DNA of 64,000 bases, taken from the sequence record PQ657772.1. One strand, 5' to 3'. The notes under the pieces were generated by a model. That model made no database searches. It was not told where the DNA came from and worked only from the letters and a program-made list of their open reading frames with translations. The stretch comes from Escherichia phage EC.P1. Shown piece after piece: positions 51,819-52,679 of the stretch (position 1 is the stretch's first letter; every line of letters begins with the position of its first letter). The position numbers and the translations under genes are program-made.

Positions 51819-52679
51819 TCAAAAGAATATCTCTCTTAGTAAGTGTGATATAACTGGCATAGTCCATCCATTCCCAAGCATTTTGTATGCTTGTGTCTTA
51901 CTAGACACTTTAAAGAAATCTACAGGAATACCCTGTAATTTACAACATTCTACTACACTTAAGTGTCTATAGTCAATATTTCTTTTACCATTCTCCAATA
52001 GATATTGACGATTAATCGTTGGGTCACGAAACACCAACTGTCGTCTTGATTTATTAAAGTACTGGTTACAATCACCACCCTTAAAATAGTTAGCATCTAT
52101 ACAGTACGAAGCGGTTCTGTCAGTGTACCAACCATCTTCAATGATATCTTGAAGTTTAGGGGCATTTGATAATGCAGGTGGTATAAAAAGCTTATCAGTA
52201 CTGCACCAGTAGTATCTCTGCCTGAAGTGAGGCGTATAATGCTGGGAATTTATCAGTACTGGTGTGATTCCTAAAATACTATTAATGTATTCTTTGAAAT
52301 CTTCCTTCATTTTAACATTCTCGAACAGAAATTGCAAGTTTGGATTTACACTTTTGATGTGCTCAAAAATATCAACCATAACCAAAAATAACTGTCCACG
52401 TATATCATTCAAGCCACCTTGCTTACCAGCAACAGACCAGGCTTGACATGGGAATCCTCCCATGAGTAAATCTATCTTATCCCACTCAATATCCCATTCT
52501 TTCCACTTAGTCACATCACCTAACTGGATAATATCAGGAAAATTCTCGGAAGATTCAGCAATTGCGTACTTGTCAATTTCAGATGAGTAATATTTTTCAA
52601 CTGGAATACCTGCATCTGCCAATGCCATATATCCAACGCTCATTCCATTAAAAAGTGACAGTACTCTGATAGGTTTCAT
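51819..52679 (-). CDS. DNA (cytosine-5)-methyltransferase
   Basis: 286 aa; motif IV GFPCQAWS, motif VI FLFENV, motif VIII QRY..., motif X LGNGWTMPV; no adjacent restriction enzyme gene recognised. Confidence 0.8.
   Translation of the reverse strand: MKPIRVLSLFNGMSVGYMALADAGIPVEKYYSSEIDKYAIAESSENFPDIIQLGDVTKWKEWDIEWDKIDLLMGGFPCQAWSVAGKQGGLNDIRGQLFLVMVDIFEHIKSVNPNLQFLFENVKMKEDFKEYINSILGITPVLINSQHYTPHFRQRYYWCSTDKLFIPPALSNAPKLQDIIEDGWYTDRTASYCIDANYFKGGDCNQYFNKSRRQLVFRDPTINRQYLLENGKRNIDYRHLSVVECCKLQGIPVDFFKVSSKTQAYKMLGNGWTMPVISHLLREIFF

Follow-up and report, generated by a model that had tools for sequence, protein, structure and literature searches.

The methyltransferase gene and its conserved motifs

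The 64,000-nt stretch of DNA from Escherichia phage EC.P1 analyzed here (PQ657772.1; hereafter the window) contains, on the minus strand at 51819..52679, a complete gene for a predicted C5 cytosine DNA methyltransferase of 286 residues plus stop codon. The enzyme is very probably an active orphan DNA methyltransferase, and its target is probably CCWGG. The open reading frame (ORF) begins with ATG and is preceded, 7 nt upstream, by the ribosome-binding site AAGGA. Its product matches the Pfam family PF00145 (C-5 cytosine-specific DNA methylase) with E 4.7e-37 and 128.6 bits (cutoff 22), which is the only Pfam domain in the protein, and reaches 117.2 bits against NCBIfam TIGR00675 'dcm', above the curated cutoff of 100.65. 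The initial annotation of the window had placed a cytosine-C5 methyltransferase at this position, and the intact frame together with both profile matches bears this out.

The motifs follow the canonical order of the superfamily, with motifs I, II, IV, VI and VIII preceding a variable region of 79 residues and motifs IX and X following it, all encoded on the minus strand. Residues referred to as invariant are those shared by an alignment of 40 homologs with 49-96% identity. Motif I, the S-adenosylmethionine-binding loop SLFNGMSVG (52632..52658), has the FxGxxxG form of the DNMT3 type, with F10 and G12 invariant. Motif II is assigned to SEID, and E34 is likewise invariant. The catalytic residue Cys78 (52446-52448) lies within motif IV, GGFPCQAWS (52434..52460), where P77 and C78 are both invariant. 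Motif VI, ENV (52314..52322), is invariant throughout (E120, N121, V122), and motif VIII, RQRYYW (52206..52223), contains the invariant residues R153, R155, Y157 and W158. The family alignment and the structural model delimit a short target-recognition region at residues 159-237 (51969..52205), which holds the family-conserved stretch DRxxSYCIDANYxKGGDxxQYFNKSRRQ. It is followed by motif IX, RHLSVVECCKLQGIP (51924..51968; R238, L240 and E244 invariant), and motif X, YKMLGNGWTMPVI (51849..51887; Y265, G269, N270 and G271 invariant).

Motifs IV, VI, VIII and X had already been listed in the initial annotation, and all four are found with invariant catalytic residues; motif IX, missing from that list, is present as well. 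Its description of motif I as divergent is misleading, since LFNGMSVG is a normal DNMT3-type motif that pairs residue for residue with LFDGIATG of the catalytically active human DNMT3B.

Distribution and conservation

The 3 kb around the gene are 99.2-99.7% identical to the corresponding regions of the Escherichia jumbo phages BF17, vB_Ec-M-J, Turkey3, fEgEco12, WPEC3, WPEC5 and Ecwhy_1, and about 89% identical to those of the 121Q/PBECO4 group (Asteriusvirus). At the protein level, the methylase is 100% identical in six phages (Ecwhy_1, BF17, vB_Ec-M-J, fEgEco12, where it is Gp455, WPEC3 and WPEC5) and 95.5% identical in about 20 more of the 121Q/PBECO4 group, including 121Q gp91. Identity amounts to 74-77% in Cronobacter phage GAP32 (GAP32_390), Pectobacterium phage CBB, Xanthomonas phage XbC2, Escherichia phage EJP2 and the Erwinia phages Hallingskeid and Kaldavass, and to 63% in Klebsiella phages RaK2/K64-1. 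Beyond these phages the family is very large, comprising over 8000 database clusters with E below 1e-10.

Most relatives' records already annotate the gene as a DNA (cytosine) methyltransferase, among them those of about 30 phage genomes whose copies are identical or 95% identical to that of the window, and C5 methylases in jumbo phages have been mentioned before (PMC7824862, PMC5259590). The gene is an ordinary, known member of the methylases of 121Q/RaK2-type jumbo phages, from which it differs in nothing essential. The labels 'HaeIII', 'HpaII', 'DNMT2' and 'SPRI' attached to some relatives result from the transfer of names; in the window, avoidance of GGCC and CCGG persists, with observed/expected ratios of 0.40 and 0.32.

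The ratio of nonsynonymous to synonymous substitution rates (dN/dS) is 0.11 relative to the UE-S1 ortholog (dS 0.86) and about 0.06-0.09 relative to more distant orthologs, values by which the gene is under purifying selection. A few database copies are split (CMSTMSU, SD-6_S16 and SD-1_S14), as might be expected if the gene were a decaying or inactive remnant, although these splits could be frameshifts or sequencing errors. With an intact frame, invariant catalytic residues, dN/dS around 0.1 and complete conservation in six phages, decay of the window gene is extremely unlikely.

The UE-S1 ortholog differs in one respect. Its coding sequence spans 626 residues (601-2481 of its locus) and includes an in-frame intein of 340 residues with Hint and LAGLIDADG homing endonuclease domains, a feature that goes unmentioned in the paper on the UE-S1 genome. 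The intein is placed as GGFP|C...HN|CQAWS, directly before the catalytic cysteine of motif IV, with both enzyme halves in frame. The equivalent P77|C78 junction in the window lies at 52448/52449, so that the window allele is an empty site. The same split pattern is seen in ph0011, JNE01, A4 and probably TH47.

Structure and relation to known methyltransferases

The AlphaFold2 model, built with the family alignment as input, has a mean predicted local distance difference test score (pLDDT) of 93.9 and a predicted template modeling score of 0.91, and the recognition region is modeled with pLDDT 89-97. In a Foldseek search against the PDB, the best 50 matches are all catalytic domains of DNMT3A, DNMT3B or DNMT3C, with template modeling (TM) scores of 0.76-0.79 over the full length, 26-28% identity and E values down to 4e-25; the best fold match reaches a TM score of 0.79 at 27% identity. 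The same proteins are the best-matching solved structures by sequence (phmmer E 1.2e-23), with residues 2-282 of the methylase aligning to nearly the whole 285-residue domain. Apart from the FxGxxxG form of motif I, the phage methylase shares with DNMT3 a compact build with a short recognition region, where M.HhaI and M.HaeIII have a large separate domain instead. The gene would thus encode a functional stand-alone C5 methylase that combines a DNMT3-like Rossmann domain with a recognition region of 79 residues.

The likeness to DNMT3 has clear limits. PWWP and ADD regulatory domains are absent, the catalytic domain being the whole protein, and the recognition loop of DNMT3 aligns with the phage methylase unconvincingly. 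Nor does the window carry a signature matching the CpG specificity of DNMT3, as CpG stands at 0.77 of expectation and the CG-containing palindromes CGCG and CCGG are still avoided. By its domain content, the phage methylase is not a member of the DNMT3 family in the regulatory sense; it is a compact C5 methylase of one domain, in which the recognition region is short. More speculatively, such phage enzymes, rather than the classical methylases of restriction-modification (R-M) systems, may be the nearest relatives of the DNMT3 catalytic domain in the prokaryotic world.

Similarity to Dcm is confined to a small part of the protein. Against the Dcm family models (NF007772, PRK10458) the score is 20.9, compared with a cutoff of 710, and covers residues 68-123 only, which places the enzyme outside that family. 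The Dcm chains in the PDB, 3lx6 and 3me5, match residues 69-124 (motifs IV-VI) with E 0.002-0.004. At 286 residues, compared with 472, the phage enzyme is also much smaller than Dcm and has no N-terminal extension. The genetic linkage typical of Dcm is absent too, with no vsr-like gene or Vsr match among the neighbors of the methylase and no repair-type skew in AGTATT/AATACT or other words in the window. What the phage enzyme would have in common with Dcm and M.EcoRII is the proposed CCWGG target, the 5-methylcytosine (5mC) chemistry and the expected protection from EcoRII-type enzymes. If the specificity is indeed the same, the phage enzyme reached CCWGG with a different recognition region.

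With M.HhaI and M.HaeIII the phage methylase shares the superfamily and the motif order, and its N-terminal catalytic half aligns with them at E ~1e-17 to 1e-15. The recognition domain is not shared, and a cognate endonuclease is lacking. The total absence of GCGC and the avoidance of GGCC in the window make it unlikely that either a HhaI- or a HaeIII-type site is the protected one.

Detectable homology to DNMT2/TRDMT1 raises the question of an RNA substrate. In that case the enzyme would act as a DNMT2-like transfer RNA (tRNA) m5C methyltransferase on the large phage tRNA set, or else leave a mark that serves regulation or packaging. Many tRNAs are encoded in the clade, one relative is annotated as 'DNMT2', and DNMT2 chains are recovered with E from 6.5e-10 to 2e-9 for the best of them and to 6e-06 overall. 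These matches cover only residues 1-126 or 1-157, placing the protein outside the DNMT2 family, and they are far weaker (1e-9) than those to DNMT3 (1e-23) and HhaI/HaeIII (1e-17). All top 50 fold matches are DNA methyltransferases of the DNMT3 group, and the genome-wide CCWGG signature described below is an effect at the DNA level. Such a role is therefore most unlikely, and a DNA target is considered in what follows.

Genomic context and orphan status

None of the ten flanking ORFs has a nuclease or defense match in Pfam, PHROGs or PADLOC, a negative result to be read with the fact that endonucleases are often unrecognizable by sequence. The immediate neighbors of the methylase differ among Asteriusvirus, GAP32, Kaldavass, Hallingskeid and EJP2. 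GAP32_389, which is absent together with the methylase in Serratia phage BF, was considered as a conserved partner and rejected, as it has no homolog beside the methylase in other lineages. The absence of a recognizable endonuclease partner, noted in the initial annotation, is upheld by these searches, and the orphan status appears well supported as far as sequence methods reach; the locus does not have the arrangement of a type II R-M pair.

The methylase gene belongs to a long run of small genes without known function on the minus strand, which holds 138 of the 142 crude gene calls. The equivalent region of phage CBB is regarded as an early region in the CBB paper. The resemblance of the co-directional array to this region suggests that the methylase is expressed early and probably acts on replicating phage DNA.

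CCWGG as the probable target

Most G+C-rich palindromes are strongly avoided across the clade of jumbo phages to which EC.P1 belongs. Among phages carrying an ortholog of the methylase (carriers), however, CCWGG occurs about as often as expected, with 37 observed and 37.2 expected in the window, 9/7.8 in the RaK2-like contig, 20/19.2 in GAP32, 34/29.2 in Hallingskeid, 38/26.4 in Kaldavass and 20/22.0 in EJP2. Among non-carriers it is depleted throughout: 11/24.5 and 13/27.1 in two BF loci, 7/16.1 in Yersinia phage fHe-Yen9-03, 11/24.1 in pEa_SNUABM_12, 2/23.9 in SE_PL, and 1/23.9 and 0/31.7 in fENko-Kae01. When all 512 strand-symmetrized pentamers were ranked, with near-duplicate genomes dropped, CCAGG/CCTGG separated carriers from non-carriers most strongly (z 7.1), and the pooled observed/expected ratio was 1.11 in carriers versus 0.20 in non-carriers. 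CCSGG and GGWCC are still avoided in carriers, indicating that the relief is confined to CCWGG and not shared by CCNGG in general. As CCWGG reaches expectation only together with the gene, methylation of CCWGG by the enzyme, with selection against the site thereby lifted, is the simplest explanation.

The absence of the gene from the non-carriers is based on record counts and, for BF and fENko-Kae01, on ~90 kb surrounding the syntenic site in each. In Serratia phage BF, GAP32_388 and GAP32_391 have orthologs that are directly adjacent at this site, and 90 kb yielded no methylase homolog. In fENko-Kae01, the 91-kb interval from the TelA-like gene to past the sigma-factor gene gave no tblastn match to the methylase even at E 10, and the paper describing this phage, with its supplement, contains nothing on methylases. 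Record counts indicate that Eneladusvirus phages of Erwinia, Serratia and Yersinia are without a methylase ortholog.

Nanopore methylomes of two relatives point in the same direction. Hallingskeid has two predicted methylases and two modified motifs, GATC with N6-methyladenine and CCWGG with 5mC (PMC11780129, Table 3), while Kaldavass has three methylases and three motifs, namely GATC, CCWGG and additionally TGCAT (PMC11780129). The C5 methylases listed there, DMFGBAAK_CDS_0275 and XGIBIPCR_CDS_0246, are orthologs of the window gene, with 76% identity. Taken together, the site statistics and these methylomes lead us to put the probability that the target is CCWGG at roughly 0.6; the product would be 5mC, as made by Dcm. 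Methylation of CCWGG would render the phage insensitive to EcoRII-type restriction whatever the dcm status of the host. The protective, anti-restriction function proposed in the initial annotation is the most reasonable reading of an orphan gene in this setting.

Several observations weigh against CCWGG as the target. The methylome support comes from relatives and not from the window phage itself, and the nanopore authors caution that host methylases could account for the CCWGG and GATC marks (PMC11780129). In the recognition region no similarity to Dcm or EcoRII can be detected, which makes the specificity unreadable from homology. Independent lineages behind the comparative signal are few, about 4-5 among carriers and 2-3 among non-carriers. 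One lineage in which no ortholog was recovered at E 1e-60 or better, XaC1, is free of CCWGG avoidance (15/16.2). CCWGG behavior is also mixed among homologs with identities of 51% or below, indicating that the specificity is not transferable at that distance. A further point concerns restriction digests. SexAI (ACCWGGT) is blocked by Dcm methylation. Digests of DNA from fEgEco12, the phage with the identical Gp455, with ten enzymes including SexAI are reported to have given patterns all as predicted in silico (PMC13070987). If this statement holds for SexAI, the virion DNA is not fully CCWGG-methylated, with the caveat that a 1% gel would leave large fragments unresolved.

Several of these observations would fit an active orphan DNA C5 methylase with some other short target, in which case the CCWGG marks of the relatives would stem from host Dcm and the pattern of avoidance from the host ranges and histories of the lineages. 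Other cytosine-containing palindromes are also unavoided in the window, with ACGT at 1.0 of expectation, CATG at 1.35 and TGCA at 1.54. Against this stand the first rank of CCWGG among the 512 pentamers and the fact that both sequenced methylomes show as many motifs as methylases. In addition, SE_PL and fENko-Kae01 have nearly eliminated CCWGG (3 sites observed versus 79.5 expected), and dcm is common in Salmonella and Klebsiella, their hosts. The near-loss of the site despite such hosts indicates that selection against it persists in the presence of host Dcm. We therefore regard a different target as rather unlikely, and methylation of CCWGG by the phage enzyme as the better account.

On this assignment, the phages would make CCWGG-specific 5mC with a compact enzyme unrelated to Dcm. 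It is a tentative further step, and one we hold with less than even confidence, to view the compact DNMT3-like phage family as an independent solution to the reading of CCWGG, achieved with a 79-residue region unrelated to that of Dcm/EcoRII and acting as a one-gene switch of avoidance. If this is true, gain or loss of a single gene toggles CCWGG avoidance across the jumbo-phage clade. For therapy candidates of the 121Q/PBECO4 group, there is some practical value in knowing which restriction systems the phage resists. The gene itself adds little to what was known, and what is new here is limited to the in silico assignment of CCWGG and the refutation of the AGTACT link discussed below. A literature search on AGTACT in phages, on methylation in 121Q/PBECO4-type phages and on CCWGG in jumbo phages returned only PMC11780129 and PMC13070987 as informative.

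Three phages of the clade show a further peculiarity. In SE_PL, fENko-Kae01 and XaC1, CCSGG and CCGG are not avoided, unlike in the rest of the clade (e.g., 25/12.7 and 41/36.6), which suggests that these phages carry a different methylase of CCGG, CCSGG or CCNGG type.

Excess of AGTACT and its proposed link to the methylase

The initial annotation had also reported an enrichment of AGTACT and hypothesized that the target of the methylase overlaps this palindrome. The enrichment is real. With 169 sites versus 21.6 expected from base composition, AGTACT has the highest excess of all 4096 hexamers in the window. Its preferred context is CAGTACTG, where AGTACT forms the core. The sites are evenly spread; those in coding sequence fall into the three codon frames 67, 32 and 50 times, and intergenic sites are proportional to the intergenic share of the window. 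Synonymous-codon shuffles predict 40 +/- 5.7 coding sites, far fewer than the 149 observed, which indicates selection on the DNA itself.

AGTACT is enriched 7-12-fold across the clade of RaK2/121Q/GAP32/BF jumbo phages, as seen in loci of RaK2-like, GAP32, Hallingskeid, Kaldavass, EJP2, Serratia BF, Yersinia fHe-Yen9-03, Erwinia pEa_SNUABM_12, Salmonella SE_PL, Klebsiella fENko-Kae01 and Xanthomonas XaC1 phages. Pooled over the clade, 1477 sites are observed versus 167 expected. A methylase acting on the cytosine of AGTACT, or of GTAC, with the abundance of the palindrome tied to such protection, would find a suitable substrate here, as GTAC stands at 2.37 of expectation in the window and each half-site offers one cytosine. 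The enrichment is equally strong in phages without the gene, however, with observed/expected counts of 146/13.9 and 132/16.5 in BF and 115/13.9 and 101/16.5 in fENko-Kae01. Conversely, among homolog carriers in 80 IMG/VR loci, enrichment is found only in the RaK2-like contig; carriers at 51% identity or less are not enriched, and many have no AGTACT site at all. The excess hence follows the clade and not the gene.

The orthologs at 76% identity provide a more direct comparison. In Hallingskeid and Kaldavass, AGTACT occurs at 10-12 times expectation, and the 31-kb loci hold 121 and 101 sites, yet AGTACT is not among the modified motifs in the nanopore methylomes of either phage, which compared native with amplified DNA (PMC11780129). 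We also considered a deamination or repair signature that would tie a C5 methylase to AGTACT and rejected it, as the deamination products AGTATT/AATACT stand at 0.98 of expectation. Host range adds a further argument. McrBC recognizes RmC, and methylated AGTACT would present A-m5C at every site, an expected McrBC substrate in K-12. The recorded host of the close relative Sharanji is E. coli K-12 MG1655. The equal enrichment without the gene, the absence of AGTACT from the modified motifs of the relatives and the McrBC argument speak jointly against the hypothesis; AGTACT or GTAC is a very unlikely target, and any link between AGTACT and the methylase is hardly more probable. Mentions of AGTACT in PMC8919816 and PMC7253447 proved unrelated.

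With this link dropped, both the excess of AGTACT and the total lack of GCGC need another explanation. A candidate function of AGTACT is to be bound or recognized by a protein specific to the clade.

Other site anomalies and neighboring genes

GCGC is absent from the window, where 57 sites are expected, or 27 by a Markov model. In ~499 kb of pooled clade DNA, from jumbo phages of Escherichia, Klebsiella, Serratia, Yersinia, Erwinia, Salmonella, Cronobacter and Xanthomonas, 474 sites are expected and none is found. Restriction-site avoidance of the ordinary kind falls far short of this absence.

Of the clade loci, only that of Kaldavass is depleted in TGCAT/ATGCA (31 observed versus 65.8 expected), the others having it at ~1.2-1.8 times expectation. 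Kaldavass is also the one phage in which TGCAT was found modified by nanopore sequencing. Modification together with avoidance of a motif may reflect an R-M system imposed by the host rather than self-protection by the phage.

Eight tandem, paralog-like ORFs of ~130-170 residues flank the methylase on the minus strand, at 50328-51292 and 53337-55881. They share the C-terminal acidic motif 'EE.(F/L)FQ.S.(V/I)', and their PHROG matches are only to families of unknown function. The longest version of the ORF directly downstream, 51337-51867 (176 residues), shares 49 nt with the 3' end of the methylase gene (51819-51867). The annotation of fEgEco12 (Gp456) uses this overlapping start, and that of WPEC3 a later one, which gives 148 residues and no overlap.

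Two small genes upstream of the methylase, a consensus scan identified the sigma-70-like promoter candidate TTGACG-17-TATAAT (53364..53392, minus strand; 11 of 12 matches), possibly an early promoter of an operon that includes the methylase. Promoter-like matches in the region are no more common than in shuffled sequence, which leaves this element a candidate only.

Among the more distant genes of the window, the sigma-70-family sigma factor (25339-26307, minus strand) is 59% identical to that of the 121Q group, compared with 95.5% for the methylase. The TelA-like protein is encoded at 63223-63918 on the minus strand. An RCC1-repeat protein gene lies at 366-1490 on the plus strand, and relatives carry several paralogs of it annotated as 'DNA condensation'.

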